64,000 nucleotides of DNA, taken from contig OY762940.1 in the NCBI GenBank assembly GCA_963667255.1, positions 384,001 to 448,000 on the forward strand. The letters run 5' to 3'. Source of the DNA: Candidatus Cloacimonadota bacterium. Its GTDB lineage: Bacteria > Cloacimonadota > Cloacimonadia > G963667145. The position numbers and the translations under genes are program-made. Numbering within the stretch: position 1 is the first letter of the stretch; the number at the start of each line of letters is the position of its first letter. The notes beneath the pieces were generated by a model. It did not search any database. It had not been told where the DNA came from and saw nothing but the letters and a program-made list of their open reading frames with translations. Of this stretch, positions 1-42,986 are shown piece by piece.

Positions 1-3000
1 CGAGCATACCCACACTGTCACATCCAGAGACCACAGCGTTGAAGGCGTAACATTCCTCTATAGAGGCAGAGCCGCTCATCTCTCCGACAAGCACACCCAG
101 ATTGGTTTTGCCACCACTGGAAGTGAAGGAAGAGCTCTCCAAGTCGCTCCTACGCAAATCCGCATCCCGCAGAGCACCCACGAGTCCACCGACTATTCTA
201 CCACTAGCACCGCTGAAAGCAAACTCAACATTGTCACAATTTTGAGTTTTAATGATAATATCGTGATTTCCTGTCAACTCGCCTGCCAATAGTCCGAAAT
301 AGGAGGTAGCCGAGCCACCGAAGACAGGAGATATCTTAGAAACATTGTAAACCTTGAAGGAGTCCGTAGTGTTCAGAGCCAAGCCACCGAACATCAATCC
401 GACCTTGGACGAACCACCAACACTGATAGACACATTGCTCTCGGAGATAGACTCGGAATACCAGGTCGCACTATCAATAGCACCCTTATTCCACTCGTCG
501 CACTTACCCATCAGCAAGCCGACATAGTTTCCTGTAGCGTTGGGAGAGGTCACTGTAAACTTCTTCAGAGTTACATCAAGATGCTTGGACAGCAAATTGG
601 TCACTTTGCCAGCATGCCCTATCAAACCACCGACATAAGAGCCTTTGGTGCTACGACCAGTAAAGGAGAGCGACAGAGGAATGGAGATATTTTGATTGCT
701 ACCGAAGGTAACATTGTCCACCTCTCCGAATAGTCCACCGACACTGGATGTCCCACCCAAATTACCTGTGATGTCAACTGTCTCTCCTACGGTTATCTTG
801 CCCACGACAACAGTATCCAAGCTACCAACCGCAGCTCCTATCCACAGAGAATCACTTGTGCCTCCATTACCGCAACTGAGGTCTATTCCAACAGATGTCA
901 CGGAATCTATAGTCACCAAACCTTTTCCAGAGATAAGCCCCGCAATACCGCCGAAGTAAGAATCACCTGTCAAGGAAGCTACTGTGATGCCACCTCCCGT
1001 GAGAGTAATATTCTTGATATGCAAGCTGTCAGCTATACTACCCTTAGCTATCAACCCGCCATAATAGTTACCTTTACTTGAACTAAACGAGCTAACAGCC
1101 GACGGCAAATTAACGCTTATATTGTTCAGGTTCACATAGCCTTTGCTATTGTCCAAAGAGCCAATAGTGCCGACAAAAACCGAATCGGAAGTGCTACCGG
1201 TAGAGGTCATAGTCCCGATATTCGTCGCTGTGACAGCGGAGACTGACCCTTTGCCGGACAAGATACCAGCAACAATACCGCCGTAGAATTTACTCGAGCC
1301 ATATTGCTTGTAGGCAGTGACTATCGATACACCAATATCGTTGATATAGAAAGAATCCGCTATTATCGCTCCGGCGAGAGCTCCAACCTTCACACCGGTC
1401 AAAGCCCCTATACCATTCAGCTTGATGCCACTAATATTCAGATCCACAGCACTGCTATCGAAGTTCCCGATGAATCCACCTGCATAATTCGTAGCAGTCA
1501 ACGCACTGATATTGGACACCTGAATGTTTCTGGCATACAGCCCCTTGCTCTCGGCGATAACTCCACCGACTGTCCCACCCTTAAAGCTGGAGCCTCCACC
1601 TATGATGACTATTCCATTCAAACTATCCAATTTGGAGGAAGCTATCAATCCTGCCGACTTATTTAAAGTGGTAAGTGTAATCTCATTAAGAGTCAGTCTC
1701 AAATCTTTATACTTGGAGTTTCTGCTCTCTCCCGCCAAAACAGCTATATTGGTTCCGCCAACTGCACTGGAGCCATCCAAAACTACGGACAAAGAATCAA
1801 CCAATAGAGAGTCGGCAATTCCTATCATGGCAAGATAGTTTCCATCAGAGCCTGCAACGGCACTGGAGAATTTTTCAAATCTGACGCTCTTATTGGAAGC
1901 AATAAAATGTCCCTTCAGAGGATAAGCAGCTGTCCCCAACGGAACAAGAGGAAGAGTATCAAAAGCTATATTGTCCAGTATTTTCACATTCAGCGAACGA
2001 GTGCCAAAGACACCACTTGCCAAAGTTTTAGCGAAATTGTTATAATCTTCCGGCAAATTCAAATAAGCCGTTCTCGTGATGCTATCGTATTTGTATTGTG
2101 ACCAAAGCGAATCGCTAAACCTACTGTAAACACCAAAGTTGAAATTGTTTACCTCTTTAAATCTGTAGTAATAAACTCGCCCTACACAGAGTGTCCCCAA
2201 ATCCCCGGGCAAGTCCTTCGATTGATAATCGAAATAACTGGAGTCCGTGAACAAGATGTCCTTGAGAGTGGAAGAAAGATTGATAGTGTCCGCTACCGCA
2301 CTGGCGAAAGTCGGAACAGTATCTTTCTCTATTACATAACCCTCTACTGTCTTGCCTGTGCCCTTCCAAACAATCTCGTAACCATCTATTCTACCATCGT
2401 TATCATAGTGGAGATGGATAGCCTTGATAGCTGCCGCTGTTCCCTTGAGCCAACCGGTTCCCTTGAGTTTGTGGAAGATACTGTCGGTGCTGTAGAATTT
2501 ATCCGGACTTTTGTTCACAGATACCATTCCCTTCACCCGATAGTTATATGCCTCGCCGGATACAGGAGCGGATAGAGTCCCTGTGCCACTCTTGTCGTAA
2601 TATGTATAGAAAGTGTCTGCACCTACAACGGTTTTCTTCATCTCACTCGGAGCAACCGTATCAAGCTCTACCAAGCCCGTGTTTACATTGCATCTGGAGA
2701 GGATATAGGCGGTAACTGTATCCGGAGCTTTTTCCACACCTTTGAGCAAATCGTAGTCAGTCGGCCAAGACGAAACCTTAATTCGTTTCCAAGAAACCGT
2801 AATAGTATCGTTGCTCGTCCCCTGCGTAGCAGACAGAGAGTCAAATTTTCCTGACCATTTGAAACCGTATCTTTGAGCCAAAGTATCGGATGGATGAGTA
2901 ATAGTAGTACCGTCATAGCTCAAGTGTGCATATAGTCTATAGTCATAATTCGTCCAAAAAGCAACCGCAGTATCCAAATATTTATACAAGGTATCCGCCG

Positions 3001-6000: not shown

Positions 6001-9000
6001 CAACCTTAGTATATGCAGAGGTAAATATCATAGATTTTTTGGCACCAGCGGCGGTATCCTCGGAGATATTCACTATCGGTCGAACCTTATACAAGTATTC
6101 CCTGCCTACACTTATCGGACTGGCAAATCTCACACCATATCCATTTGCAATCACAAAGCTGGCGGTATCAACGAAAGTGGTATCACTTCCCGTCAAGTAT
6201 AGAGAATCGGCTAAATTGCCATCAGTAGTAGACCTGAACAAGCAATAATTGGTAGCTGTATCGCCTACGGTATTCTTCACCTTAGACCAAGTAATCTTGA
6301 TAGCCTTGGGGGTGTAAGTCGCTTTAGTCGCAACGAGAGTATCCAAAGGAGCCAGCTTGGTGCATCCGAAGACCATATTGGAAACTTTATCAGAAGTCAC
6401 GCTACCTTTTGGGAAAACATCTACCAAGTAAAAATAGAAATTACCTCTCTTAATTGCACTGGAGGTATCCGAATAACTCATACTCGTGGCAAACCCAGCT
6501 TTGATGGTTTCTACCCTATATCTTTCGTTTAGATTGGCAGAAGTAGCTGTAGCCACAGTATCGTATCTGAAAATCCTGATACTGTCTATCCCGAAAGCAA
6601 TCAATTTGGCAGGCAAGCTATAGGTCAGCTTTATCGTATCAACCTTCAAGTCGGACATAGACACGAACTTCAAATCTTTTATACCAGTATATTTCAAGAA
6701 ACCGCTATCCACTGCGGAAGGCTTGGAGTTATACTCCTTGCCCAAAGCTACAACACTGTAGTAAACATTCGTATAAGAAACATAATCGTTGGTGTCAACA
6801 AAGGTCGTGTCCGCATTGGTAGCCCCAAAATTCGACCTGAACAGCATATCGTATTTGGTAAGTGGATTGCCACCTGTGCCGGTAGAATCACGCAAAATCA
6901 TGTAACCCTTGGTCGCAGCCTCGACTTTGCTCCATACTAATGTAATGCTATCAGAATAAGTCCCCTTGGAAATAGAATCTATCTTAGGAACGCTCACATC
7001 TCTGTGCACCAAAGTGTCGGTAGAGTAAGGAGAAAGTCCCGTAGTATCGTTGTATGAGGAGATAGCGTAATAGTAGGCTACACCTTGCGTAACCACAGAA
7101 TCTAAATAAGTAGAAAGATTTCCTGTTATCCTGTAGGTCTCCATAATGGTCAAATCAGACTTTCTTCTTTTTCTCACTTGATAAGAGTCCACTACCGTAT
7201 TGCCGGTCATACTCTTCAAACTCAACTTGATGCCGCTGGTATCCGAACTCAAAATCTTCAAAGTGTCCATAGTCTTCAGATAAGTGTAAGAAACTATGTC
7301 AAATGTATCGGCGGAGAGAGTATCGTTTTTCACCTTAAATCTATAGGAGTATCTCTTCCCTCGTGTCAAAGTAGTGTCCACTACAACTCCGTTGCTGGTT
7401 ACCGTGTCAAAGATAGTGAAAGCAGAATAAGGCTCACTAAAGAGTTTGCGATAAACAAAAGTCTCACGAGCATAGCTATTCACAGGATAGACCGTAATGC
7501 TAACCCTATCCACCACTCTGCTGTTGATAGACAATGGCGAACTCTTCTCTATCCATACGGTATCGTTGTAGCCATACACCTGCGTAGCATTAAGAGGTGG
7601 CATCTCCGACCATCCAGTATCTGTGCCACTCTCTGGCGAAACAAGTGAAATATCAAGATTGCCTGTTTGATTGCCGACAACTGTATCTTGCTTGATATCA
7701 CAAACATATCTCAAGCTATAAGCGTAGAATCTTCCGGGCTCAAAGTCTTTGCTAAATAGATTGCCTCCGTAATAGTCCACAACCGTAGAATCGGAAAGAA
7801 CGACAGAATACTTACTGTTCGTAGCCAACTCTTTTCTAAACAATTGGTATTTCTCTATACCCCGCATCGTATCCCACAAAATCTTCACGCTGTCTATCTT
7901 CGTGCCAAAAGTAGCGTCAGGTTTCTTCGGCGTAGACAAAGCCAAATATCCATAAGCAAAATCGGAAATCCTCGATACCTCACTACCAACTTTCACTACA
8001 ACCTTATAGAAGAACAATTTGCCCATTTGTAGAGCGGAAGAGGTATCATTAATAACATAACTCTTGATATCTCCACTGGTAGAATGATTAACAGTGTAAT
8101 TAGCTGCATCTACAGACCTGCCTGTGGTGTCGGTCGTGTTCTCCACATTGTCCCAGCGATACAGTTTTACCCCATTGTCTCCAAAGCTCGTTACTAGAGA
8201 AATCTGGTTGCTAATACTAAACCCAAGGGATATAGTATCCACCCTTTTACCAAGGAACGCCAAATTCGTTACCCTGTCAAAAGCTCTGTATCCCGAATCC
8301 AAATCCGAAGTATCCGAGTTTACATTCACACCGGCAGCCTGCACTCTGTATCTGATAAACTTGCAAGAGAGATACTCGGCTTTATCGTTATAGACCGTAT
8401 CCGTATTGTCGTCAAGCGTCCCTTCGTTGACCAACAAGCTGTCATGACCGTTATCCATCCTACGATATAGTCTGTAACCGACAGCATCGTTTATCTTGTT
8501 CCACCTCACAATTATAGAGTCCGTGCTTGTCCCTCTGCTCACCGTATCAAAGACCGGAGCTTGCAATTTGGCATAGCCGGTATCAAACGAACTGCTATAT
8601 TGAGACAGCCCTGTAACCTTATTGTAATAAGCAACTTTGTAAGTGTAGTATTTCCCTTGAACCATAGAGGTATCATTAAGAGTATCTTTATTCACATCAA
8701 ACGCACGAACTATCTTGTTGGTAATGCTGGAGTTGTTCCAGTCAGCCCTCAGGACAACCACAGAATCTATACTCTTCGTATTTCTGACATTCTTCACAGC
8801 TCGCAACTTGATGCGATTCAAATAAGTTCCTGAATTGACAACCGTAACAGTGTCAGGAGGTTGTAACGGTGTAAACGAAGCCAATGTCAAATAAGTGTCA
8901 GAGACAACATCATTAACAATTTTAAGCTTAAAGCTGTCCAATTCCCCGAAATTTTTGACCCTATATTTGAAGGTATCCGTCACGGTGGCACCCCGCACAG

Positions 9001-18000: not shown

Positions 18001-21000
18001 CCTTGTAATAATAGAAAACACCCGCCTTCACATCTGTATCTACATAAGAATCCAATGTGGTTACAAAAGCACCGTCATCACTCAAGTCGTTCCGATGAAT
18101 TTTATATTTTTTCCAGCCCACATTGGTTGAAGCCAAAGTATCCCACTTCAAGATAATCTTATCTTTCCAAACAGCTTTCGTAGCTTTAAGATTAGTAAGT
18201 GTATCCAGTCTGCAATATCCGGAATCAACCGCACTATAAGGCGAACTAATCAAATCTCCCAAAGTCTCGTTTCTATAAACTTTGGCTCTCACATAGTACA
18301 TCTTAGCTGGATTTATACTGCTCAACACAGTTCTAGTGACAGCAGAAGAAACAAAACTACTCGAAGTGGGAGAACTAAAATCGGAATGAACAGAATACTC
18401 AAGAGTCATCTTGTTGACATTGGCTGCCCAAGTATTCCATTTCACTATCAACTTCTTATTGATAAGGCTGTCTTCCGCTGTCTCAACATCCACCACAGGA
18501 GCCTCAAACTGTCTCCAACCGCTATCACTCACAGCACTCTTCAGACTAACAGACAAGTTGCCTTTCCCAATCAAATAGTATTTATAGAATGTTCCTGGCA
18601 AAGCAGAGATGTCTTTGGCATAAAGGCTGTCTCCAAAGGCTGTCGTAGTCAAATCAAGCAAAGCAGTGTCTTTGGTTGGAGAAATCCTATAAACGGAATA
18701 TCCGTTAGAATAGTTCCCTTTCAACCACTTAACTTTAATAAAATCGACACTATCTCGTGAAGGAATTGGCGTTGCGGGAGCAGCCAAAGCCAAATATCCG
18801 TAAACCGAAGAACTAAGAACCGAACTGTCGTTTTTACCAAAACTGCGAACTTTGAAGAAATACTTTTTGTCTCGGGTCAAACTGGACAAATTAGTGGAAT
18901 TAACACAAGCAACCGTATCTGACAGAGAAGTGAATGTAGCTATTTTCTTATAAGTTTCGGTATCTTGTATAGTGTCATAATACAAAGCATATTTGGAAAT
19001 ATTTTTCTGGCTTGACCAAACAACCAAAATGGAATCCAAGTATGTAGCTTTGCTGGCGGACAAAATAGTCGTGGCAGGCACAGAAGCATGTCCGGAATCA
19101 ACATTGGAATAATTAATATAAGGGTCTGCCAAACTCTTGGTGAGCTCATTTCGTGCAAAGACTTTGTAATAATAAACAGTCCCATAATCTATCCTCCTGC
19201 CTACAGAATCACTGGCAGAAGAGGAAGTAAGCGTATCAATGGCGGTAAAACTGCTGTTATTTGCACTGGACAGAAGCACATACTCTGAGGCTCTATTAAC
19301 AAGCCCCCAAACCAAATTCACGGAATAGTAATTAGTTCCAGAAGAAGCACTGAGACTGCTTGGTGCCGGCAATTGTGAAAATCCCGAATCAGCGGAAGAG
19401 CGAACATTTGTGGCGGAAAGAGCGTTATAAGCCATCACTTTGTAATAAACCTTCAATCCGCTGTAGCCGGTCAACGCAGTGTCCACATAAACAGAATCTT
19501 GCTTGGTTATGTTAACTTCTATTTCTGATTTTACAGCAACATCAAACCAGCGATAAATCTTGTAACCGGTCGCATAAGGAATGGTGTCCCAACGCAATCT
19601 GATAGTGTCCAGATACAAACCGTCACTTGCCGAGACATTGCTCGGTGCAGCCAAAAGCAAATATCCACTGTCAACATCAGTAAAAAGCGAATAGCCGAAA
19701 GATCTAGTTTTCTTTCTAAGCTTGTAATAATATTTAATACCCTTGGAAAGAGAAGAGGAACTATCGACATACTTCCCAACATTCCCTACTACAGCCTTTA
19801 GATATGAGTCCGTAAAACCATTAACCGTAGATGCTCTGTAAACAAATACTGTATCGTTTGACGACAAATCGGATGTCCCCCAACTCACTAAGATGGTATC
19901 GGTATTCAGCCCCTTGGAAACGGAGAAATTCTTCGGACAAGCCGGCTTCTTCCATCCGGTGTCCACATCGCTGTATTCGGAAGTAACATCCAAATTAGGA
20001 CTTTCTTCTGTAAATCTGTATTTGAAAACATAATGATAGAACATATCATTAACCAAAATGTCTTTGTCATAATAAATTAGCGTATCGCCTTTTTGGATAC
20101 AATCGCTCTTCTTCAGCTCAAAATCGATGTAAACAGAATTCGATACATCCCCTTGATACCTTCTGAAAAGATACCGCTCTACTTTCTCCAAACCGAACCA
20201 ACTGAGCCTAATGGTATCAACTATCGTCCCCTTGGTGCACGACAAGAATTTAGGTTTGGACAATTTCAAATATCCATACCCCATATCACTTATCTTCGTT
20301 TGGCTGTTAGCGGTAGCTTGCACCCAATAATAGTAAACTTTCCCTGCAGAGATAGCTGTGTCAAGATACTCGCCCACACTGGAAAGAGGTGTAACATTAA
20401 TAGGAGTCGAAGGCTTGATAGTCACGGTGTCACGGTAAACATTAAATACTTTTTGCTCATAATCTTTCCAAGTGATTTTTACCGTATCATAGGACTCATT
20501 TTTACTCACAGTAATCACAGGTGGGAACAAAGCAGCACAGCCGGTATCGTGATAAGAAGTATCCGAGAAGCCAACTAACTTATTCCAAGCAACACTATAA
20601 TAACCATAAGTAACACCTGAGTAAACGGCAGTATCAATAAAAGAACCGTCAGCATTAAACCTATAAACAGTATCGATATTTGTAGCTCCGGATTTTTTGC
20701 GACAAACATACATACTATCGGCATTATCCACTATGTAGACAAAGACCTTAATTCCATTAATATTCTCATCATTATCGCTGGCACTCGGAGCTCTCGGAGT
20801 CTCCAACCTCGTATACCCTGTATCCATTGCACTCATAGAAGAAGTGCCAAAAACAGGATGTTTATAAGAAACCGTATAAGTATGAACTATTCCCTTGGAA
20901 CTGGCAACAAAACTTTTATCCGTATACTTTGTAACACCTGTGTCCGAACCGAGGAAATTGCCGTCTCTGTAAACAGAGTAAATAATCTGATTTAGATATG

Positions 21001-24000
21001 TGGCAACTGGAACGCTCCACGAAACAACTACAGAATCTTTGTAAGTTCCATCACTCGCCTGAATATTGGTGCACGGGAGCAATTTAACCCAGCCGGAATC
21101 AAGATTGGAACCAGTGGACTGCAATGAGCCGGCAACAGAATAGACCCTATAATAGAAAATCCCGTAAGTCGTTTTGTGACCAAGAGTATCACTATAAACT
21201 ATGTTCGTCAGAGATCCTGCATTGATAGTAGCAATAGTCGCCAAATTGCTGGAGGTAGCACCCCTTTTGATAACAAACTTCTCAGCACCAGCTCCCGGAG
21301 CTTTCTCTCCACTCTCTATCTTCCAAGTCAAAGAAACAGTATCAGACAAAGTTCCTTTCGTAGCAGTAATCTCAGGTGCTACAAGTCTAGCATATCCGCT
21401 ATCTTGGTTACTAAACTTGGAATAAGCTGCATCCATTTGAACAAAAGACTGCACGGAATATGTGTAGAATTTACCAGGGATAATAGCAACATCACTGTAA
21501 GTAGTATCGGTATAACTATTGGTAGCCGCTATGGTATCATATTTTCGCTCTCCGTTTACAACCCAACTCTTACGAAGTTTGTAGCCGTCTCCATAACTCA
21601 CTTTACGCCAATTTATAAGAATATATCCCAAGGAGTCTTGAGTAGCATCCACCAAAACAGGTGTTTCGGGGAGACACCATCCATAACTATTATTATTGTA
21701 AGTAGACAATGGAGACCAATTACGAGCATCACTACTTATGGTGTAATAAACACGATAGAAATATCTTTTCCCTTTCAAAATATCAGAAGAAATATCATTC
21801 AACAGATATGTATTTTCTGATTGCACCCATGCCTGCGTGTTAGCCACAGAAGCAGAGCCATTGACAGAAAAAGCAATTCTTGTGTAATTTGTACCATCTA
21901 TACAATCCGAATAACTTGGGTAACGATAAATAGCTATGAGATAAGGTGGTTTGTTAGGAGTAACGGAAATCTGTATAGTATCTACCTTCCCTCTGGAATA
22001 ACTGTTAACCGTTATAGCCTGCAATGGAGACAAAACACTATCGCGAACTTCAACAGATTTATTGTATTTCCCAATAGAAGTTATCGTTGCATAACCCATT
22101 TCCCCTTCTTTCAAAATTGTATCCCAATTTTCAAAGTTTGAAGGGAATGTTTTAGTGCAATTGAACGAAGAAGTAGACTTATACACAACTTTCAGAGAAT
22201 CAGTATTGTCAGCAGCTTTCCAATAAATTCTAACCTTTTCATCAGCTGCCAAAGCGGTCATCTCCAAAAGAGAAACAGGATAAAGCCTCGCCGAACCTAC
22301 TGACGACCTATCACTCATCGCAGTTACTTTGCCGGCAGAAGTAGTAGCTTTTGTATAGTAATAATATCCCAGTCCGGCATTGGATTTGGCAATAACATCC
22401 GTGTAGGAAGTCCCTGTAAGACTAGATACCAACAAAGTCGGCTCCGCTGTGCCATAGGTGCTCACCTCTTGTTTATAAAGAGAATAAGAAGATGCACCTG
22501 TATAAGCATTCCATTTTACTGTTATAAAATCAACAGAATCGGTGGTAGTGCTCACCATAGTAGGCGGAGTAAGAGCAAGCCAGCCCACAGGGTCAGTCGT
22601 GAACGAACTCTTATTCATAGTAGCCACAAACCGAGTCCCGTTTAGCCACTTAATCGGCTGAACTCTATACAAATATTCTTCCGTGTTAGTGGGGACATCG
22701 TAATATTTGCAAGAATCAACCGTAACACGAGAATAAGAACCTATATTATTCTTGCTCGTTGAACTATTCAAAATCCTGTAAATAGCATAACTATCTGCAA
22801 AAGGCACAGAGTCCCAAGTAACCGAGATATATTTGTAGCTGACACCATCACTCGCTTTAACCACATCTACTTCATCAAATAACACATAACCCGTAGCTCT
22901 GACGCTATCGGTGGAATTTTTGAGAACAGAATAACCGGTATACCCATATTTTGAACAATAGGAGTTTACATAATAAAGATACGCTTTGCCCTCTACAACA
23001 TTGTGATCTACATAAGTAATATTACCTGAACCGTCATCTGTCAACCCTGAAGATCCGATAGTAATTTTACTAAGGAGCACAGGATCATCGGAAGAACCAA
23101 GAATTACTCTCTTAACATCATAATATATAGCACTGTTTTTATTCTTCCATGTTACCTTTATAGTATCATCATAGGTAAACTTACTAGCATTCAAAGAGTC
23201 GGCAGGTTCAGGAGCTCGATAGCCCACCAAAGTATCACTATAGTGAATATCCTCTTTCCCATCATCTTTGATATGACCTGAAGTAGCTACAGCATATATC
23301 TCATATTGTTTCCTGTCAGGAGCAAGCCAACTCCCCTTATAACTTGTCGAACTTTCCACAGATTTAGCTAAGTTAATCTTAGTAAACGCTCCTGTCGTTC
23401 CCTTTACTCTCTGGTAAAAAGAGTAATTGGCACCGACACCTACCAATCCAACAGTCATGAAAATCGAATCTGCATCAGCAGTAGCATTATCTCCAGAAAC
23501 AGAGAAAGAGCTAATATCACTCAAACTCACAAACCCCGAATCAATATTAGAAAATTCGGAAACAACCAAACCGGAATCTACACCCAACAAAGCCTTTATC
23601 TTATTTTGCAAACTCGAACTGTAAGCCCTGACCTTGTAGGAATACATCGTTCCTCTGTCATACGAAACATCCAAACAATTCAAAGAACTTGTCGTGCAAA
23701 TCTTAGCAAAAGCATCGGTCGCAACATTAGTTTTTTTCTTCCAAACTTCATACCCATCTATTTCTTTAGCATAACTGGAATCCCAAGTAACATTAACATT
23801 GGTTATTCCTCCCTTAACCGCTTTGCAATTAGTAGGAGGAAGAAATTTAAGATAACTCGGTTTCTGGTTGCCAAGACTTGAAGCTCCATCGGATGAAGCA
23901 ATATTCCTTTTATCTGGATTATACGCTTTCATCGCCAATATCAAGAAAGACCCTTTGCTGATACCGGCATCAATAGCGTTAAAAGTATAACTAATCTCTG

Positions 24001-26722
24001 CTGTAGCTCCCACCTCTGAACTATTGATAACATTAGAAGAGTTTCTAAAATTCAACGCCTTAAAATCGGATAAAGTATCTTCCCTATAATACAACCAATA
24101 TTGCGTTGCAACCGAATTTCTCTCAAACTTAATCGTAATCTTAGCCGTATCCCATCCGAGAGATGCACTAATCAATTTTACAGGGGCGATAGAGATATAT
24201 CCCGTATCAGTGCTTGAAAAAATTCCTGATCCACTTTGAGCAGAATAATCTGTTCTATCAGCTTGCAAATAATAAATATAATACCTTGAGTTCTTCACCT
24301 CTTTGGAGTCGGAATGTGTCAAAGTTGTCTCGGTCGCACAAGTAACAGTTGTCAGCAGCGTAGGATTCTCCAACACAACTCTATTGGAATCCAAAACACC
24401 TCTGTAAATCTTATATTTTTCTGCTCCCCGACTGGGGCTCCCTGTCCAACTTACCTTAATCTCGTCAGAATAGCTCCCTTTGCTCACACTCAATCCCGTA
24501 GGAGCTGGCAACTTAGAAAATCCAATCACGGTATCACTGGTAGAAGACTCTCCCACACTTGGCAAATAAGCCGTCACAAAATATCTATAAACTTTACCCG
24601 GGACACCTGAATAATCACATCCTGAAGTTCCTGAAAGACTAAAATCGGTAAGTTCAACAATGGAATCCGCACTCGTCCCAAGAGGAAATCTGTAAACTTT
24701 AAATCGCATCAAACTATTGGTAGAAGAACAATTCCAAGACAATTTAACAAAACTCAAAGAATCTTTGGTCGCAGACAAACCAGTAGGAGCGGTAATATTC
24801 GTAAAAGTATCTACAGATAAATAGTCAGACATTCCGGCATAGCTACTGACAGCTTTAACCCAATAAGTATAAGAAGTAGCCGAAGAAAGACCCGTATTAG
24901 TGTATGTAAAATAACTCTGCCCTCCATCAGTAAAAGTAGCAATAGGCGTAACCCTGTTATCCCTATACAAGAGATAAGAAGAAGCACCCGGAGAATCTCC
25001 CCAAACCAAAGAAATACTATTCGCAGTGGTAGCAGAAACTTTAAAACTGTCAGGAGCCCCTATTCGCGACCAACCGGAATCAACATTAGAATAATTGGAA
25101 GTATTAGATCCTGCTACAGTTTTAGCCGCATAGCAATATTTAGTTCCCTTTTCAAAGGAGGATTGAGAAGACTTATTATGGATAAAACTGAACGATGAAG
25201 AACTAGAAGTAGAAGTTCCCAGTAAAGATAAAGCTTCTATACCTTTACTCTTATACTCAGTAAGAGTAGCATAATAGAGTTTACATTCAGTTATTCCCGT
25301 AGGTGCTTCCCAAGTAATTTTCAAAGTATCTGTAGATTTAGTTGCCGATAAATTGTATGGCTCTGCTATCGGCAGTGAACCTTGGATAGTGCTCGAGAAA
25401 GAAGAATAAACATTAATGCCAGTAGTAACCACCCTTCCTGCTCTAACCTTAAATACATAAGTATATCCCTTGGTTAAAGTAGGTTCAGAAAGAGAATAGC
25501 TTGCTATAGAATCAGTAAAAGTAAGATACGCATTATCCAGTTTAAGAGTATCAAAAGTCGCACCCAACACATTTTTGGCATACAACAACTCATAGAATCC
25601 AGCATTACTAACTTCTCTCCAAGATATTACCAACTTCCCAAGTTGTAGCGTATCTGCAATACTACTCGGAGTACCCACACCACAATATCCAACATTCAAC
25701 AAAACGCCATCAGAGCTTTTCGCTGTGCGAGTCTTCTCATCGGACTCCCCTTCATTAACAATACACCTAACATCATAAGTGTACATAGAACTACTTGAAG
25801 AAGGTGTATGGAATATCTGGCGACTATAATATGCAGCATCCTGATCTTTGGTAACAGTCTTTAAAAGTTGATAAACTTGATTAGTTAATTGATTGGTTAA
25901 TTTGCCATAAATTTTGTACGCAGAAACCCCATTAACAGCTGTCCAACCTACAGAAATAGAATCAGAATAAGTCCCTTTGGAAGCTATTACCGTGTCAGGA
26001 GAAGGTATTTTGGCAAATCCAGTCACATACGAAGACAAATCTGATTTGATAAAAGTATAGTTTTTAGAAACAACCTGAATAGCAAAATAGTAAGTGCTAT
26101 TAGTCTGTAATCCCGTAATAGAAATTCCCGTATTGCTTATATTTTGTAGATCTTTATACGAGCTCGAAGAAGTTGGGATAGAATCGTTTGCATAATAAAT
26201 TCTATAAAAGAAATCTGTAGAAGTGTAGTTACTCATCTCAGAAGAAGCCGACCAAGACAATTTAATAGTATCTTCGTATGTTCCTTGAGAAGCTGTTAAA
26301 GAATTACCGGAAATTGTATTAAGTTTAAAATACCCGTAAGCTACAGGACTATATCCTGAATAGCCTCCGTCTTTAACCTTTCGAGCCTTGTAGTAATAAA
26401 CCTGACCATACTTAAGACTACCGCTACTACTATACTCATCCACATAAGTTTTAGCACCCGAACCGGAAGAAATCTTAACAAAGCTACCATCTACCGACTC
26501 TGACCTATACAAGTCGTAAGTTGTGGTTCCTGATGTTGTGCTACCGGACGAATACCAATTGACAATTATATAAGTACTGTAAGTACCCTTGGAAACAGAC
26601 ACAGAGTCAGGAGCATCAACAGAATTGTCTGTGGAGACTACATCCGTACAGCTAGCAAAAAACAGCAAAGACAACAAGCAAAAAAACAAAGAAAAGCAAG
26701 AAAACCTTCTTAAATTTTTTAT
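1..26722 (-). CDS. Giant surface lipoprotein (at least 8,900 aa, 3' end outside window): lipobox, tandem fibronectin type III-like repeats (~26640 to ~2100), GLUG-motif repeat region (~2070 to 1)
   Basis: The same minus frame reads as coherent protein wherever I translated it (26650, 13400, 7300, 2900, 1). The ORF track lists no long minus-strand ORF here, as expected if the frame has no stop within the window. N-terminus (I/M)KNLRRFSCFSLFFCLLSLLFFAS-C-TDVVSTDNSVDAPDSVSVSKGTYSTYIIVNW. Recurring P..ASKGT..D.I.I.W...Y.IYR...Y.D...G..YYY.V.A...D.G[YWF] pattern. Distal YVGGLIG/VGGLFG/FGGIAG/VGGLVG motifs. Start uncertain (ATA 26722, GTG 26773 or TTG 26689). Confidence 0.92.
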   Translation of the reverse strand, partial: MKNLRRFSCFSLFFCLLSLLFFASCTDVVSTDNSVDAPDSVSVSKGTYSTYIIVNWYSSGSTTSGTTTYDLYRSESVDGSFVKISSGSGAKTYVDEYSSSGSLKYGQVYYYKARKVKDGGYSGYSPVAYGYFKLNTISGNSLTASQGTYEDTIKLSWSASSEMSNYTSTDFFYRIYYANDSIPTSSSSYKDLQNISNTGISITGLQTNSTYYFAIQVVSKNYTFIKSDLSSYVTGFAKIPSPDTVIASKGTYSDSISVGWTAVNGVSAYKIYGKLTNQLTNQVYQLLKTVTKDQDAAYYSRQIFHTPSSSSSMYTYDVRCIVNEGESDEKTRTAKSSDGVLLNVGYCGVGTPSSIADTLQLGKLVISWREVSNAGFYELLYAKNVLGATFDTLKLDNAYLTFTDSIASYSLSEPTLTKGYTYVFKVRAGRVVTTGINVYSSFSSTIQGSLPIAEPYNLSATKSTDTLKITWEAPTGITECKLYYATLTEYKSKGIEALSLLGTSTSSSSSFSFIHNKSSQSSFEKGTKYCYAAKTVAGSNTSNYSNVDSGWSRIGAPDSFKVSATTANSISLVWGDSPGASSYLLYRDNRVTPIATFTDGGQSYFTYTNTGLSSATSYTYWVKAVSSYAGMSDYLSVDTFTNITAPTGLSATKDSLSFVKLSWNCSSTNSLMRFKVYRFPLGTSADSIVELTDFSLSGTSGCDYSGVPGKVYRYFVTAYLPSVGESSTSDTVIGFSKLPAPTGLSVSKGSYSDEIKVSWTGSPSRGAEKYKIYRGVLDSNRVVLENPTLLTTVTCATETTLTHSDSKEVKNSRYYIYYLQADRTDYSAQSGSGIFSSTDTGYISIAPVKLISASLGWDTAKITIKFERNSVATQYWLYYREDTLSDFKALNFRNSSNVINSSEVGATAEISYTFNAIDAGISKGSFLILAMKAYNPDKRNIASSDGASSLGNQKPSYLKFLPPTNCKAVKGGITNVNVTWDSSYAKEIDGYEVWKKKTNVATDAFAKICTTSSLNCLDVSYDRGTMYSYKVRAYSSSLQNKIKALLGVDSGLVVSEFSNIDSGFVSLSDISSFSVSGDNATADADSIFMTVGLVGVGANYSFYQRVKGTTGAFTKINLAKSVESSTSYKGSWLAPDRKQYEIYAVATSGHIKDDGKEDIHYSDTLVGYRAPEPADSLNASKFTYDDTIKVTWKNKNSAIYYDVKRVILGSSDDPVLLSKITIGSSGLTDDGSGNITYVDHNVVEGKAYLYYVNSYCSKYGYTGYSVLKNSTDSVRATGYVLFDEVDVVKASDGVSYKYISVTWDSVPFADSYAIYRILNSSTSKNNIGSYSRVTVDSCKYYDVPTNTEEYLYRVQPIKWLNGTRFVATMNKSSFTTDPVGWLALTPPTMVSTTTDSVDFITVKWNAYTGASSYSLYKQEVSTYGTAEPTLLVSSLTGTSYTDVIAKSNAGLGYYYYTKATTSAGKVTAMSDRSSVGSARLYPVSLLEMTALAADEKVRIYWKAADNTDSLKVVYKSTSSFNCTKTFPSNFENWDTILKEGEMGYATITSIGKYNKSVEVRDSVLSPLQAITVNSYSRGKVDTIQISVTPNKPPYLIAIYRYPSYSDCIDGTNYTRIAFSVNGSASVANTQAWVQSENTYLLNDISSDILKGKRYFYRVYYTISSDARNWSPLSTYNNNSYGWCLPETPVLVDATQDSLGYILINWRKVSYGDGYKLRKSWVVNGERKYDTIAATNSYTDTTYSDVAIIPGKFYTYSVQSFVQMDAAYSKFSNQDSGYARLVAPEITATKGTLSDTVSLTWKIESGEKAPGAGAEKFVIKRGATSSNLATIATINAGSLTNIVYSDTLGHKTTYGIFYYRVYSVAGSLQSTGSNLDSGWVKLLPCTNIQASDGTYKDSVVVSWSVPVATYLNQIIYSVYRDGNFLGSDTGVTKYTDKSFVASSKGIVHTYTVSYKHPVFGTSSMSAMDTGYTRLETPRAPSASDNDENINGIKVFVYIVDNADSMYVCRKKSGATNIDTVYRFNADGSFIDTAVYSGVTYGYYSVAWNKLVGFSDTSYHDTGCAALFPPVITVSKNESYDTVKITWKDYEQKVFNVYRDTVTIKPSTPINVTPLSSVGEYLDTAISAGKVYYYWVQATANSQTKISDMGYGYLKLSKPKFLSCTKGTIVDTIRLSWFGLEKVERYLFRRYQGDVSNSVYIDFELKKSDCIQKGDTLIYYDKDILVNDMFYHYVFKYRFTEESPNLDVTSEYSDVDTGWKKPACPKNFSVSKGLNTDTILVSWGTSDLSSNDTVFVYRASTVNGFTDSYLKAVVGNVGKYVDSSSSLSKGIKYYYKLRKKTRSFGYSLFTDVDSGYLLLAAPSNVSASDGLYLDTIRLRWDTIPYATGYKIYRWFDVAVKSEIEVNITKQDSVYVDTALTGYSGLKVYYKVMAYNALSATNVRSSADSGFSQLPAPSSLSASSGTNYYSVNLVWGLVNRASEYVLLSSANNSSFTAIDTLTSSSASDSVGRRIDYGTVYYYKVFARNELTKSLADPYINYSNVDSGHASVPATTILSASKATYLDSILVVWSSQKNISKYALYYDTIQDTETYKKIATFTSLSDTVACVNSTNLSSLTRDKKYFFKVRSFGKNDSSVLSSSVYGYLALAAPATPIPSRDSVDFIKVKWLKGNYSNGYSVYRISPTKDTALLDLTTTAFGDSLYAKDISALPGTFYKYYLIGKGNLSVSLKSAVSDSGWRQFEAPVVDVETAEDSLINKKLIVKWNTWAANVNKMTLEYSVHSDFSSPTSSSFVSSAVTRTVLSSINPAKMYYVRAKVYRNETLGDLISSPYSAVDSGYCRLDTLTNLKATKAVWKDKIILKWDTLASTNVGWKKYKIHRNDLSDDGAFVTTLDSYVDTDVKAGVFYYYKVKVVTQRFSESHYSAVDTGYLSLPKPVLSSVTQVSGKDSLKLVWSYDALPASMVDSFIVYRLDSLKSPYSPSVFGLKKSNLSVTSSGGKSVYTWTQGNLKRGKNYFYYLQASSTSISNKSEMTDTLSGSLALGASETLIATRGDFKDSIKITWTRALDGQSYLLYRSMAIDGFSVGMDSLAVLGALDTVYIDSIKLNAVPNRGNPYFYSVRTKNVDNANATHYSGFSPANFGFASLDTVKGFTVAKAQDASVVKANWNSVKVSGYSPFYTVRWLSVARGGSVVDSLVTTDTSVDLRSNGAFGSRLSQGTIYYFNVSAEVRFVSLKDTAYSKVSVIDSGYTSVPAPTLSATYGTIVDTIKITWTQLSSFMVDSVKIKWSANKSNWDSVVVKYRVATDTVYSLAVDSTLMGIPVYIKARFEGTVGGSDYSSTVTGASKLRGPKNLTASKGVSTDSLTLTWDNYLGSRVVADDNTGNYLIYMSDSANGTFGESQKIKEMDKTEAGIYNYRFNLKSVAGSIPGILYYFKVGGTTSITPADSLSNVDSGFILPPKVYISGCSDKRNGEILVSFSISSTVTKDSVAYKNYGMQIEVQRKKTATGSYVLVDSFQGLDTLSFIDTSSEVEAGIDYYYRVRLHSKRLANAVGGNKSLSSSPWTDSVLGKCAVSLSNIQLVSADTFYTDSIRLKVLLPRGVDSIFVRRVNEAKTDTTLIAKIKATDLSVPLASYFRLTDKNLTNGKLYYYYVKTKKNTETSEWVGPVKGYTKLDTCVNLAVSKGAYKSKIKLTWNAKSDAEGYSIVVKDVATGKDSVLISNVTSVTSSVEQFVDSLAYKFICGYRYTLGVSAYSYKFNSKRVHSDTVWGVGYLSPADIDSVWVSQNLTDSVQVKVRYRGGYNFAIWRKLRGGSFAAISSPAWVSTAVGTADSYYVFMDSLGGSASRVNGAYYYYKIVASRSGYNGVSDTLNTETLSKPGYSRIDTVGIVEINYPQADSLSIKFNRANLDVKSLSNVRYRLYRYSDQAYTTLLDSTALTDTATVVYAADVANKLKKGVPYWFRVRSEAYETANDGVAYSVSPLSSALKKGGIILPKPSMGAITVTDTGNLVKWNNYPANVGALDSIRLYRSISGSAFTLLTTLSKTTLASASNVFVDKITSYGEHVRYYIQTVINNTNDSKQVSVASDTLATYCYLPAPDTLRVGTGGYADTIKISWKWGATDYDGNVDSFILNRYKSGSLEKTYTVAKTPKEMYDTASVINGINYVYSLKSKKNNTPSYLPVISTDSIMDTGYARFAPPDTLFATVTGHSITLSWGYKNGKANMASDVQYLFVRDTSQSDTWQGKIMDTVVTGPDTIYVDNDNLIHGSVRWYKVAAFNDISKEKVLSKPVRGYSILDSVVFTRYDRGVNDSIIVVKWNKLSVHKAFFVEWSAYGDVDANTGKFLYPLDSCGSYSTYTYTTDSAIIPIKEDSLTGRRIFVRVWAKNDFGTSDGALAIGWTKLSSPSLIKVTDGELKNKLSIKIKRSTVAAKDNSTTYQLSYVRNKSELFVNGSQNIVLSSANFSADTLLDTIDVSSSYAGYVYYVGVRALNDLYNSTSAVIIDSGYSRIPSVGLSTVTPAQQGFISLSWVKKDIGGDTLKYLLCKAKKGVTTFDTIDTLYDGTASTKITYLDSNVVAVENYEYYVYTYAPNRFGVLYSDSSMHVTNYAKVGYVDSIRQVANSYKYDTISLAWKSLQDVDSYIVYRSDDNRVANCVVLDTVKATTYLDSSEKLKLNPGKIYYYWVAGTRKSDIGPISTTGVGAFTKLKRITMVEASKGSSAGYISLKWSMSSLATGYNVFFDTLGSSGYSLLSKVGVEADDTTYSFTLTDYSSKFAQGEKYLFRVQPVNSYCTAAISDTSVVVDTGFLKLSSVDSFYFYYDSIRYDTIKLNWAVKKTANLRYYIYRSSTRGGTKTLLDSIGVDTGYYYDKDVKTGGIERGKPYRYYITTALKGFEGAESDTVEVLTYNLASSISIYSGAWSLLGEPTGLKPSGVFNYTTKDNVADSSFSDSIVVKWRKVANARHYYLVADTAKDFKYSDALYKKTISTGDTTYKFVVPELKVENLGQLLYFKVAALNFLDNYDASKARFTAPVKGFALLLTADSLRLDSLESNKFILKCKTVKNADRYELYKKNAGGVFVAIDSATVPRIVDTSVIPGDNGCYKVRVYNDSTGYSAYSDSLAVSTSPLPPSGVTATNGVSSDTIFVSWNIDSLVQKVDSFVIYAKSINLVSDPSRIDSVHADFTKTKDTLFDASLNRTVGEKYLYSVKSYRNGKSSVMSDVDTGWKKIPNIKGVIADTVGPSVDFVTVKWNAIVSLCERGKYLLKRVSSSDTIYATSLADTVYKDYTATKGMAYKYYVKAYNPDYLNINSSVETWSGQSSDGFVSVNWSDSTFGGKRFVTPVLTVKKSDTLLVDTIKLSWVANNLATKFLLAYDTLIGFSSSYCDTLTIRNNTAKDTCSYNFIRSPLVQGKSYYFKLRLVDSGGAETVWDSVSSYWSAVDSGWSKLSPLSNVSATDSITDSILVRWGKSSVANVTYEVKIISDNASPKSVKVTNDTSYKFESKYAEGKKKIVVRQTHTIYGSSAWSDTAEGIGKQNPPTFSVRPSKGKYYDSIYFEIMEVSSLIGKMNYRVYIDTNKAQTNFANTTVLTGFYDTIKGAATYSLKGSVFTDSSWYGKKLYFRVASQVQGFDRFSDKSIVDSGWTKLVPPTSVDTFGVGSLDTAVLGIKWTKVANAENYAVERTRYNENSYLALDTVVDTFYLDTIVLSKRNQAFLYRVRAFNDLSALVGSDGILNSDSKYSYLTDTLYTKVYEVKNVVATKGVHFDTVKLSWKGIVDEPYTVIRRQRNSSGVLELAGKVAYHNGQKTSVGFVDRVVADSGLQPGKWYYYNVYLSGDKAIYRDSVDSGYGRIPALSTSDVWVNNDTANISTSLGIDPKSFDSIIMISINSGKTYIDSVRVDTISNGAFGHVYTISVRGATVTDTFKYRVKNFGELDSFKLKIVNDVVSDTYLTLASFTPLQPPDTVTVVNSGTYLNRIKLRAVKNVRNTKSIDSVVVLRADWNNSSITNKIVRAFDVNKDTLNDTSMVQGKYYTYKVAYYNKVTGLSQYSSSFDTGYAKLQAPVFDTVSRGTSTDSIIVRWNKINDAVGYRLYRRMDNGHDSLLVNEGTLDDNTDTVYNDKAEYLSCKFIRYRVQAAGVNVNSDTSDLDSGYRAFDRVTNLAFLGKRVDTISLGFSISNQISLVTSFGDNGVKLYRWDNVENTTDTTGRSVDAANYTVNHSTSGDIKSYVINDTSSALQMGKLFFYKVVVKVGSEVSRISDFAYGYLALSTPKKPDATFGTKIDSVKILWDTMRGIEKYQLFRKELATNSKYSVVLSDSTVVDYYGGNLFSKDFEPGRFYAYSLRYVCDIKQDTVVGNQTGNLDISLVSPESGTDTGWSEMPPLNATQVYGYNDTVWIEKSSPLSINSRVVDRVSITVYPVNSYARETFVYRKLFSEPYSAFTIFDTVTSNGVVVDTTLTRGKRYSYRFKVKNDTLSADTFDIVSYTYLKTMDTLKILSSDTSGIKLSLKSMTGNTVVDSYQVRKRRKSDLTIMETYRITGNLSTYLDSVVTQGVAYYYAISSYNDTTGLSPYSTDTLVHRDVSVPKIDSISKGTYSDSITLVWSKVEAATKGYMILRDSTGTGGNPLTKYDMLFRSNFGATNADTTFVDTNDYVSYTNVYYSVVALGKEYNSKPSAVDSGFLKYTGIKDLKFVSMSDLKVDTIKLTYSLPAKLIAFGIDSIRIFRYDTVATATSANLNERYRVETIKAGFATSMSYSDTSSAIKRGNFYFYLVDVFPKGSVTSDKVSNMVFGCTKLAPLDTLVATKATYTPKAIKITWSKVKNTVGDTATNYCLFRSTTDGNLADSLYLTGSDTTFVDTASFVIANGYGVRFASPISVGREYLYKVRPIVNISEDTAAGAKKSMIFTSAYTKVDTGYTKPDAPVLVSVSKGIAGDSIRVRYTTPTYGDSIILFRDSLNISGDNWQKVSALTFGAVERNWYDKKVFPGMRYQYKIKSYKGVAVDSSGIDSGYVGLHSPDSIVVVDNGLYSDSVRMRIYTNDTTASIIDTIIIKRGQAYLGVLSAYDTIVAKGYSNKYFSYVDSGVGLHGLDYIYTAAFKNIVSTSDFCTVIDTGYRKLDSVTIDSVSKGVFFDTIKLIWHKSNDALQYLILRDSTTGSNGRIFTKYDTLAFTSVSKASADTTWNDVTKYGAFKKVYYMVLAVGIDHNSVYSSIDSGYYKYSGVTDLKFVSLNIPKIDTMELNWSYTADIYPNLDTTLIFRYDSLKHTDSVREGSIYNVTSSVNSSSLGIKNIACDTSASLLIGNVYFYRVVAKIKGGELTNASNLVYGYLNVPKVKNVVASDGLKDTLRISWSMVASVLGDTVDNYYISRYIDGVADGEISVTGGDSVYIDSATEKRFNTTTFKGRGYTYKVRAVVNISEAIPNSLFEKTLISEYSVADTGYIFPEPAVLHSVSKGTKIDSIYLTYSTPQYIDSAVLYRMQKGYTWGRLDSLPVNAPAWTTYIDSSSNLIPGERYYYKIKTFRFSVVDSCKADSGYALLNVPGNFKVVYDSNRYAPNFADTSRIKLTWDTIKFGSGFQILASKSGTPSLANCDSLALISSSSDTSYLFIPKEFANNNDSINKYNFAIRAYRANGTDSVFSALSKVISGAVRSLSVSNIRGSNATYSDRISLIWDLPRYGKADIQGYEIYRQKDTEAFSLLATLSTADVTNDTIYYDAYDLSKGHIYHYKMKTIYAGGKSTSIFSDTSTFGALPLDKVNLRASKGKTTGIEVQFDTVAGSSFFYLYRNENSKSFGSVYKKLSLSSGNITKSNDTLTYKDTDVLEGHLYFYQLKAAMVVGTDTVYSLPETDHGYKYLHLDSVDVQIDSGGISVKWLKSKNVGTAMPTSYSLYKKTDNGNWKVVDLTGKLDTTVITSPADTLYKYLDTAVAFWTNYDYRLYAHLSYDGTTITHPSDTLAQRYGFKWSGKFDSLSATQGTSNDTITVSWKRIKVSSWPTDYDLLKGVEKAPDTVTAYILSRCNVNTGLVELDTVAPSEMKKTVVGADTFYTYYDKSGTGTLSAPVSGEAYNYRVKGMVSVNKSPDKFYSTDSIFHKLKGTGWLKGTAAAIKAIHLHYDNDGRIDGYEIVWKGTGKTVEGYVIEKDTVPTFASAVADTINLSSTLKDILFTDSSYFDYQSKDLPGDLGTLCVGRVYYYRFKEVNNFNFGVYSRFSDSLWSQYKYDSITRTAYLNLPEDYNNFAKTLASGVFGTRSLNVKILDNIAFDTLPLVPLGTAAYPLKGHFIASNKSVRFEKFSSAVAGSDGNYLAMIGIADSLLVDSLSVVLDGSSAVGGTNIAVLAGESRNSKYKDLRLTLNEITLTTLNKSAGLIASSKLDSLNGIVIIGGGSSFKGGTVGGVIAESKGLYARNIQVSNISALTATNYAGGFIGNFDSSAVDLNISGIKLNGIGALTGVKVGALAGAIIADSFYINDIGVSIVTAYKQYGSSKFYGGIVAGILSGKGSVSAVTATNIGTMTSTGSTSDSVFVGTIGSLDNSKGYVNLNNISVNLPSAVSSFSSSKGNYYGGLIAKGSIADSLHIKNITLTGGGITVASLTGDSYFGGIAGLISGKGLVTIDSVTSVGIDLSCGNGGTSDSLWIGAAVGSLDTVVVGKITVGETVDITGNLGGTSSVGGLFGEVDNVTFGSNQNISIPLSLSFTGRSTKGSYVGGLIGHAGKVTNLLSKHLDVTLKKFTVTSPNATGNYVGLLMGKCDEWNKGAIDSATWYSESISESNVSISVGGSSKVGLMFGGLALNTTDSFKVYNVSKISPVFGGSATSYFGLLAGELTGNHDIIIKTQNCDNVEFAFSGASGRIVGGLVGALRDADLRRSDLESSSFTSSGGKTNLGVLVGEMSGSASIEECYAFNAVVSGCDSVGML

Positions 26723-27272
26723 ACAAAACTCCTTACTGAAATTACAGTCGACATCAAATAACTTAGTTTGCACAAATTTTCACAATATCCATCCATATTA
26801 CCAACGATTAACAAATGAAAGAGTTGTCAACAAAAATTATGTTTTTTCAAAAGAGATATCCACATATGGCTAACACCCTAAAATGTAATAAGATATAAGT
26901 TCTCTTCTCACATAAAATAAACATTTTTTGCTTATTTTTGAACTCCTTTTGCACAAATTTTTATCCAATTTTCACTTTTATTCTCCTATCTTGTTTTAAG
27001 TAACTGCTTAAATTTCAATAAAATACTATCTTAGTTTAAATTTATAAGTCTTTTTAGTATTTTTTTCAGTGTCTTGCTTTTCAAAGTGTTAACTATTACT
27101 TTAATTCCAGCATCTTACTCCCAAAAACACCATTTTCTGATTTTTCAGCTCCCACAACCTTTTGATGATTTCCCTTTTTTCAGTAAAAATAATGATTTAT
27201 CATCTTTTCCTTTACAAATATACCCTACTCCATTGCAATTGCAAGCAATATCTTGTCGCTTTAGGGGGAAAA

Positions 27273-41606: not shown

Positions 41607-41614
41607 CTCTACTC

Positions 41615-42973: not shown

Positions 42974-42986
42974 ATTAAACTCGCTC

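Follow-up and report, generated by a model that had tools for sequence, protein, structure and literature searches.

Why would a bacterium with a streamlined genome place serine or threonine behind aspartate hundreds of times along a single giant protein predicted to sit at its surface? The question arises from a 64,000-nucleotide window (i.e. the whole stretch of DNA analysed here; contig OY762940.1, positions 384,001 to 448,000) of a Candidatus Cloacimonadota genome, hereafter G000 (one contig, C1, of 1,587,896 bases, 98.9% complete), which we compared with five congeners (G001–G005). An initial annotation had flagged positions 2100 to 26650 of this window as very dense in Asp-Ser and Asp-Thr dipeptides (D[ST] sites), and interpreted them as hundreds of Bacteroidota-type O-glycosylation sequons on a mucin-like ‘bottle-brush’ filament. 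The flagged range lies within a single stop-free frame of the minus strand, which runs from window position 26773 to below position 1 and continues to G000:C1:377030; a plus-strand reading of the same coordinates was ruled out, being full of stops. The product (G1) comprises 11,247 amino acids (aa) counted from the first GTG. We consider it probable that O-glycosylation of the Bacteroidota type coats a folded rod formed by this protein, its D-S/T-x sites being the likely acceptors. The parts of the gene that matter for this interpretation are:

2 to 26773, minus strand: giant lipoprotein gene G1, a stop-free frame open at the left window end.
26720 to 26734, minus strand: Shine–Dalgarno sequence AAGGAG (26734-26729) and, 6 nt further on, a probable non-canonical ATA start (26722).
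26648 to 26722, minus strand: predicted lipoprotein signal peptide ending at the lipobox Cys (codon 26650-26648), recognised by eye and by a hydropathy and regular-expression heuristic.
2048 to 26656, minus strand: stalk of at least 75 fibronectin type III (FN3) domains, delimited with an iterated profile, with 342 D[ST] sites, of which 321 fit the extended motif D-(S/T)-(A/I/L/V/M/T/S/C/G/F).
18788 to 19945, minus strand: four-domain segment of tandem FN3 sandwiches with 18 D[ST] sites (AlphaFold2, predicted local distance difference test, pLDDT, 83.7).
7199 to 7438, minus strand: 80-aa example chosen by the initial annotation, in whose translation Thr comes after 6 of the 7 Asp.
74 to 1936, minus strand: first part of an all-beta domain, rich in Gly, that lies distal to the stalk (pLDDT 89.8, predicted template modelling score 0.90).

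The high density of D[ST] dipeptides was borne out. Across the flagged range (8,183 aa), 341 of the 586 Asp precede Ser or Thr (observed-to-expected ratio, O/E, 2.64), whereas 1,000 shuffles within 100-aa blocks yielded a mean of 127.5 (standard deviation 9.3) and never more than 159, so that composition does not explain the frequency. Likewise, 234 copies of the core motif D-[ST]-[AILVMT] were counted, whereas the shuffles gave 48.5 (maximum 72). Over the whole of G1, 397 of 743 Asp precede Ser/Thr, and the claim of hundreds of sequons holds as a motif count (274 core and 368 extended motifs). The 80-aa example does display its 6 Asp-Thr pairs for 7 Asp, but at 7199-7438 on the minus strand and not at 7201-7440 as first reported. 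Two paralogous FN3 lipoproteins of 11,057 and 10,918 aa, in tandem at G000:C1:491876-558840 (L002-L007), share the excess (D[ST] O/E 2.03 and 2.47); together, these three giants represent 6.3% of the G000 genome and hold about 200-270 core motif copies each. DT (z = 22.7) and DS (z = 17.1) are the two most over-represented of the 400 dipeptides in the three proteins (the next reaches 10.7), and control dipeptides are not enriched (E[ST] 0.84, N[ST] 0.73, [ST]D 1.11, Dx[ST] 0.84). Whichever codons are considered (GAT, GAC, TCN, AGY or ACN), the excess is present (1.9-3.4), and it drops to 1.57 and 1.23 in the two other frames of the same strand, hence a signal at the protein level. As also proposed initially, cytoplasmic proteins are free from this bias (723 predicted, O/E 0.88). 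Indeed, when proteins are pooled by class (723 cytoplasmic, 127 with a signal peptide, 46 lipoproteins, and membrane proteins), O/E ranges from 0.77 to 0.90 throughout, and only four G000 proteins exhibit a strong excess, namely the three giants and a 1,558-aa GLUG-repeat protein.

Two side observations concern the distribution of these sites. In the GLUG-repeat protein (O/E 2.58), 34 of 56 Asp precede Ser/Thr, at a fixed repeat position; a cluster of GLUG-type exported proteins is located at G000:C1:173129-182658 (L008). Besides, the first 1,500-2,000 residues of all three giants (window 21000-26650, minus strand, for G1) are sparser in sites than the later stalk (O/E 1.0-2.2, with one 500-aa block at 2.7, versus mostly 2.0-3.7 in the middle and distal stalk).

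The residue that follows the dipeptide links these sites to the Bacteroidota motif. In the three giants (n = 1,033), this third residue is I (20%), V (16%), L (16%), G (10%), T (9%), S (9%), A (7%) or F (4%), K, E, D, P, Q and R being each below 2%; one of AILVMT is found in 69% of cases, versus 36% after other Ser/Thr. This ranking equals the glycoproteome ranking given in a 2025 review (PMC12871550, legend to Fig. 1), and the extended motif reported for Bacteroidota (PMC12871550, PMC8550257, PMC10897501), including Tannerella forsythia (PMC8550257), fits 94% of the stalk sites. The requirement for Asp, for which Glu is not accepted as a rule, is likewise visible at the sequence level in the E[ST] and N[ST] ratios given above.

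Comparison of six orthologs (7,668 gap-free triplet columns, the five others being 48-73% identical) indicates that the sites are conserved as units. Of the 475 sites, 205 are present in all six orthologs. Ser/Thr was lost in 1-9% of cases after a retained Asp, versus 28-59% for other Ser/Thr in the five orthologs; where Asp was lost in one species alone, Ser/Thr was also absent in 28 of 40 cases, compared with 16 of 1,314 where Asp was kept. The number of sites per ortholog stays between 293 and 328 despite Asp contents of 7.1-10.0% and Ser + Thr contents of 16-22%. Sites with a permissive third residue were kept in 74-84% of cases (non-permissive: 51%, n = 20), and those in inserts or loops in 84% (n = 64), versus 23% for other loop Ser/Thr dipeptides; N[ST] and E[ST] were kept in only 23% and 19%, respectively. 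An old set of stalk sites appears to be preserved by selection.

The same signature was sought outside the giants, in a test independent of the FN3 fold. Of the 1,175 G000 proteins, 946 had a match in G002; the test was restricted to those at 30-85% identity, with the three giants and three GLUG-locus proteins removed. In 66 predicted exported proteins, 67% of the 151 D[ST][AILVMT] sites were kept, versus 53% of 379 such sites in cytoplasmic proteins, while other x[ST] triplets were kept at 35-45% and 53%, respectively. With local identity controlled, the exported-versus-cytoplasmic interaction amounts to 1.57 (protein bootstrap 1.12-1.99), and falls to between -0.12 and -0.36 when N, E, G or K replaces D. 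This effect holds for Asp despite the lower local identity of exported proteins.

The host does not belong to the Bacteroidota, as the initial annotation had envisaged: its MetG is 72-89% identical to six Ca. Cloacimonadota records and at most 46% identical to full-length Bacteroidota matches. Therefore, the giants can be said to work like the Bacteroidota system, and not to be members of it by taxonomy. The likeness includes the motif, the third-residue ranking, an Asp not replaceable by Glu, the presence of lipoproteins among carriers, and the confinement to non-cytoplasmic proteins, seen here as a conservation restricted to predicted exported ones. The Bacteroidota system adds a mannose-rhamnose-glucuronic acid type core to Ser/Thr; it differs in its host phylum, whereas the Cloacimonadota host has no metG-wzx locus and a general secretome that is barely enriched. 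In scale, published Bacteroidota glycoproteomes count 257-443 identified sites in all, and the most modified P. intermedia protein 10, while G1 alone holds 274 core (368 extended) motifs.

The mucin-like character proposed initially was not upheld. The iterated profile delineates 75 FN3 repeats with a median period of 102 aa up to residue 8242, and the best structural matches (Foldseek) of the four-repeat AlphaFold2 model are FN3 arrays or tandems. These matches, the pLDDT of 83.7 and a Pro content of 2.6% led us to reject a mucin model in favour of a folded FN3 chain with one site per approximately 25 residues. Mucins and serine-rich repeat adhesins are long surface proteins with many O-glycans, the mucin-type domain being unstructured, rich in Pro, Thr and Ser, and covered by contiguous O-glycans. 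The giant is similarly a long surface protein with many predicted O-glycans, but has folded FN3 domains and a strict three-residue motif. Surface proteins are also the main motif carriers in T. forsythia, where 120 sites were found across 18 cargo proteins of the type IX secretion system (T9SS; PMC10897501), including the S-layer proteins TfsA and TfsB (PMC8550257). These are T9SS cargo forming a lattice, whereas G1 is a predicted N-terminally lipidated FN3 rod.

Candidate enzymes were found in the genome, although none near G1. G000 harbours one TMEM260-like gene (C1:966325, outside the window), which scores 143 bits against PF11028 (cut-off 24.2) and matches human TMEM260 (CAZy GT117; PDB 9rql) at E 8.9e-9, its Asp36 being aligned with catalytic Asp52, which the human enzyme requires for O-mannosylation (PMC10214176). 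All 151 Bacteroidota genomes sampled carry the family, as do 39 of 41 Cloacimonadia genomes and 14 of 22 genomes of a mixed set; no self-sequon tail was seen on the protein in G000 or in genome G008. Human TMEM260 adds mannose to the B strand of IPT domains, which are beta-sandwiches (PMC10214176), and the main lineage-specific site of the giants opens strand B of FN3. The human enzyme is domain-specific and uses dolichyl phosphate mannose, whereas the bacterial protein is a candidate only, and it is tentatively that we propose it as the initiating transferase. A second candidate is a YfhO-like membrane protein of approximately 840 aa (G000:C1:1492794-1495304), which matches only the C-terminal 80 profile positions and has counterparts in 36 of 41 Cloacimonadia and 143 of 151 Bacteroidota; the Bacteroidales YfhO-like protein is likewise a predicted oligosaccharyltransferase. 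The Bacteroidota transferase is described as undiscovered in the 2025 review (PMC12871550) and in a preprint of July 2026 (bioRxiv 10.64898/2026.07.27.740950), the latter proposing YfhO while pointing out that P. gingivalis lacks it. A pair of conserved GT-C proteins would suit the two-step model of the review, a core transferase then a ligase, if the roles are assigned in this way. None of the papers retrieved in our literature search attributed the Bacteroidota transferase to a TMEM260 homolog, and this search gave ‘DUF2723’ only in the human TMEM260 study.

Under this scheme, the giant would be exported and lipidated, after which a membrane GT-C enzyme would move a lipid-linked sugar, probably mannose first, onto Ser/Thr in the periplasm. 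About four glycans per FN3 domain would then coat the lipid-anchored rod. If one FN3 domain adds approximately 3.5 nm, the finished rod would measure approximately 270 nm; it would be stiffened and shielded from proteases, and would keep its variable tip at a distance from the cell. Most speculatively, the YfhO-like protein might add the outer glycan, or be the transferase itself.

The genome encodes other components as well: two GtrA, 14 GT2, three Wzx-like (all away from metG), three weak PMT_2 and one Wzy_C match. N-glycosylation by STT3/PglB was rejected, as no STT3 match was obtained in the 98.9% complete genome and Nx[ST] O/E is 0.91-1.28 in the giants. Large polysaccharide and GtrA/GT2/GT-C clusters, into which several insertion sequence copies are inserted, lie at G000:C1:11000-53000 and 857000-880000 and are possible sources of the outer glycan. 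Within the window, one gene could be a possible supplier of GDP-mannose:

56577 to 57563, minus strand: mannose-1-phosphate guanylyltransferase-like gene (TIGR01479, E 1e-91, below the cut-off).

Several results weigh against glycosylation of this type, or narrow it. The evidence for it is comparative throughout. In ordinary exported classes, core motif O/E reaches only 1.12 and 1.15 versus 0.97 in cytoplasmic proteins, and the conservation test combines a crude hydropathy rule for localisation with one genome pair, without a lineage lacking the system as control. Beyond the genus, proteins with FN3 domains at the 23 loci pooled from other Cloacimonadia families show no enrichment (222 sites versus 235 expected; a 24th locus, L109, with O/E 0.97, was excluded from the pool). 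The conservation test gave 23 exported sites and an interval of -2.2 to 6.4 for G008 versus G032, a pair that is too close (median identity approximately 90%), and only 7-13 exported sites, several misclassified and 1-2 kept, for G000 versus either of them. The signal is strong in the host genus only. The distal solenoid, i.e. the Gly-rich all-beta domain, is enriched in G000, yet O/E is below 1 in three of five orthologs, and 36% of its 26 sites were kept versus 17%. On the enzyme side, PF11028 also occurs in 17 of 61 Planctomycetota, and the Bacteroides metG-wzx arrangement was not recovered: upstream of metG, the gene that was tested encodes a MATE transporter; this metG-wzx-glycosyltransferase locus is, according to the review (PMC12871550), a feature of Bacteroides and not of the whole phylum. 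Three tandem similar MATE-like transporter genes in fact occupy window 40239-44342 (minus strand) upstream of metG.

The alternative that survives best, although we regard it as improbable, is purely structural: Asp-Ser/Thr would cap the turns entering beta-strands, the hydrophobic third residue would be the first buried residue of the strand, and repeat expansion would have amplified the pattern in the host genus. Variable positions within the repeats had been reported initially, and this is only partly so, since 475 of the 844 in-domain sites of the three giants (56%) fall in four recurring FN3 columns (strand-B start, 132; gappy-middle strand, 137; Y-x-D-[ST] at strand E, 94; D-[ST]-G domain end, 112), while the 18 modelled sites are placed at strand starts, strand ends and loops. 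As a reference, we took the best 150 FN3-array proteins of a representative library (median O/E 1.06), reduced to 141 by setting aside nine with full-motif O/E of at least 2.7, of which 7-8 resemble the host-genus giants by their termini and one has a T9SS-like C-terminal domain. In Y-x-D-[ST] (column 58), the probability that Asp is followed by Ser/Thr is 0.61 in the giants and 0.61 in the 141 arrays; in D-[ST]-G (column 85), it is 0.91 versus 0.71. Both motifs, common in other FN3 lineages, are therefore generic, and about a quarter of the in-domain sites (206 of 844) would exist without glycosylation. One unrelated array, P0125, reaches a D[ST] O/E of 2.46 through column 58 alone, and the contrast at column 48 is inflated because the region is gappy and the profile was trained on these proteins. 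A hydrogen-bonded pair also predicts the joint loss of Asp and Ser/Thr, and no excess of newly gained sites was found (Ser/Thr follows 12% of the 529 private Asp, versus 13% in other species). Exported proteins, moreover, are often beta-rich.

The fold, however, appears to explain the sites only in part, the check on fixed turn positions discounting two of the columns. At the strand-B start (column 24), the probability is 0.80 in the giants versus 0.30 in the 141 arrays, where Lys and Arg are commonest, homologous repeats carrying them as often as Ser/Thr after this Asp. Off the four columns, 40% of 919 giant Asp precede Ser/Thr (background 22%), whereas the arrays exhibit no excess (14% of 9,687 Asp; background 25%). 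Stratified by column, the odds ratio is 3.07 for Asp and 0.85-0.94 for Asn and Glu. Asn usually substitutes for Asp in turn caps, but is here neither enriched nor conserved. Loop sites are conserved as well as canonical ones, and the effect extends to 66 unrelated exported proteins while sparing cytoplasmic ones. A second set (113 of 120 homologs listed, at least three repeats each) has a median O/E of 1.10; it includes a Chitinispirillaceae protein at 2.37, in line with the remark on Fibrobacterota in the review (PMC12871550). For ten homologs, a cluster look-up returned no taxonomic assignment.

Still less probable is that the sites are genuinely modified by another chemistry, be it a different sugar, a phospho-substituent or a group particular to the genus that another GT-C protein attaches. 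Conservation tests reveal that a motif is recognised but say nothing of the chemistry, the genome has three more weak PMT_2-type GT-C genes, and the signal is, as noted, largely confined to the genus; but the third-residue ranking and the Asp-not-Glu rule closely match the Bacteroidota motif, and both enzyme candidates, published or proposed, are common to Bacteroidota. Lastly, a composition, codon or DNA-level artefact (an acidic, Ser/Thr-rich surface protein, or repeated hexamers) is very hard to credit and largely refuted: although the protein is 22% Ser + Thr, local shuffles never approached the observed count, all codon classes exhibit the excess with other frames much weaker, and the number of sites is constant while ortholog composition shifts.

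Bacteroidota-type glycosylation of a folded rod thus remains our interpretation, with the third-residue rule, unit conservation beyond the fold and the non-Bacteroidota host on its side, and two of four recurrent positions being generic FN3 features. The 2025 review (PMC12871550) presents the system as Bacteroidota-specific and names only Fibrobacterota as a likely extension; among the 15-20 top-ranked titles of each literature search, no paper tied Cloacimonadota to the motif or to giant FN3 proteins, although Fig. 2A and the supplements of that review may hold Cloacimonadota values. The system likely operates in Cloacimonadota too. A broader synthesis is possible but doubtful as a whole: D-S/T O-glycosylation would be ancestral to phyla related to the Fibrobacteres–Chlorobi–Bacteroidetes (FCB) group, with a bacterial TMEM260 homolog as initiator and YfhO as outer-glycan ligase, and a genus with a reduced 1.6-Mb genome would spend 6% of it on three rods of approximately 270 nm made of FN3 domains, bearing 250-370 glycans each, equal in number to those of an entire Bacteroidota glycoproteome, and presenting an exchangeable tip beyond the coat. 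If glycosylated, the giants would count among the bacterial proteins with the heaviest O-glycosylation. More practically, a streamlined non-Bacteroidota genome that keeps the motif under selection reduces the list of possible transferases to a few GT-C genes and draws attention to the TMEM260 homolog, found in every Bacteroidota genome sampled; the four-domain fragment with its 18 sites is a ready reporter substrate. Conservation by localisation also provides a means of charting the system in those uncultured phyla in which composition alone fails to reveal it.

The extremities of G1 have features of their own. The predicted lipoprotein signal is conserved across orthologs and paralogs. At the matching place, 6-7 nt past AGGAG, the start codon is ATA in G000 and G001 and ATC in G002-G005; in G004 and G005, a stop directly upstream of the Shine–Dalgarno sequence excludes an upstream ATG, GTG or TTG start. 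This conserved non-canonical start may limit the synthesis of an 11,000-aa protein. At the other end, the distal solenoid gave only weak beta-helix matches (E > 0.1), with no Foldseek match at E ≤ 0.001. Past the left end of the window, G1 holds ten Listeria-Bacteroides repeats, then a GH19 chitinase-like tip (G000:C1:377030-377800, L001:1033-1800; E 3.5e-33 to 8x2v) with zero core motifs. The five orthologs end without this tip at 9,942-10,196 aa, after the solenoid or the Listeria-Bacteroides repeats; being confined to the G000 ortholog, the tip looks exchangeable. An Rfam search of the window returned no match.

Similar giants occur in all five congeners and, among 121 genomes of the class, only these and G000 have at least 42 scored repeat matches, the next having 15. 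The tandem giants are broken into frames of 4,256 + 6,719 aa in G001, and of 5,179 + 5,506 aa across a contig end in G002. The FlgD-Ig C-terminal domain has one weak match in G000 versus 54-73 in four family f4 genomes, and this near-lack suggests the loss of a T9SS-like secretome in the host genus. Finally, G004 (C1:685000-724999, L087-L088) encodes three extra FN3 proteins of 3,400-3,700 aa, two of them with a visible lipoprotein-type start; adjoining nucleotide-sugar genes, they are built from a different repeat type (D[ST] O/E 1.6-2.3) in which the strand-B column is almost without Asp.

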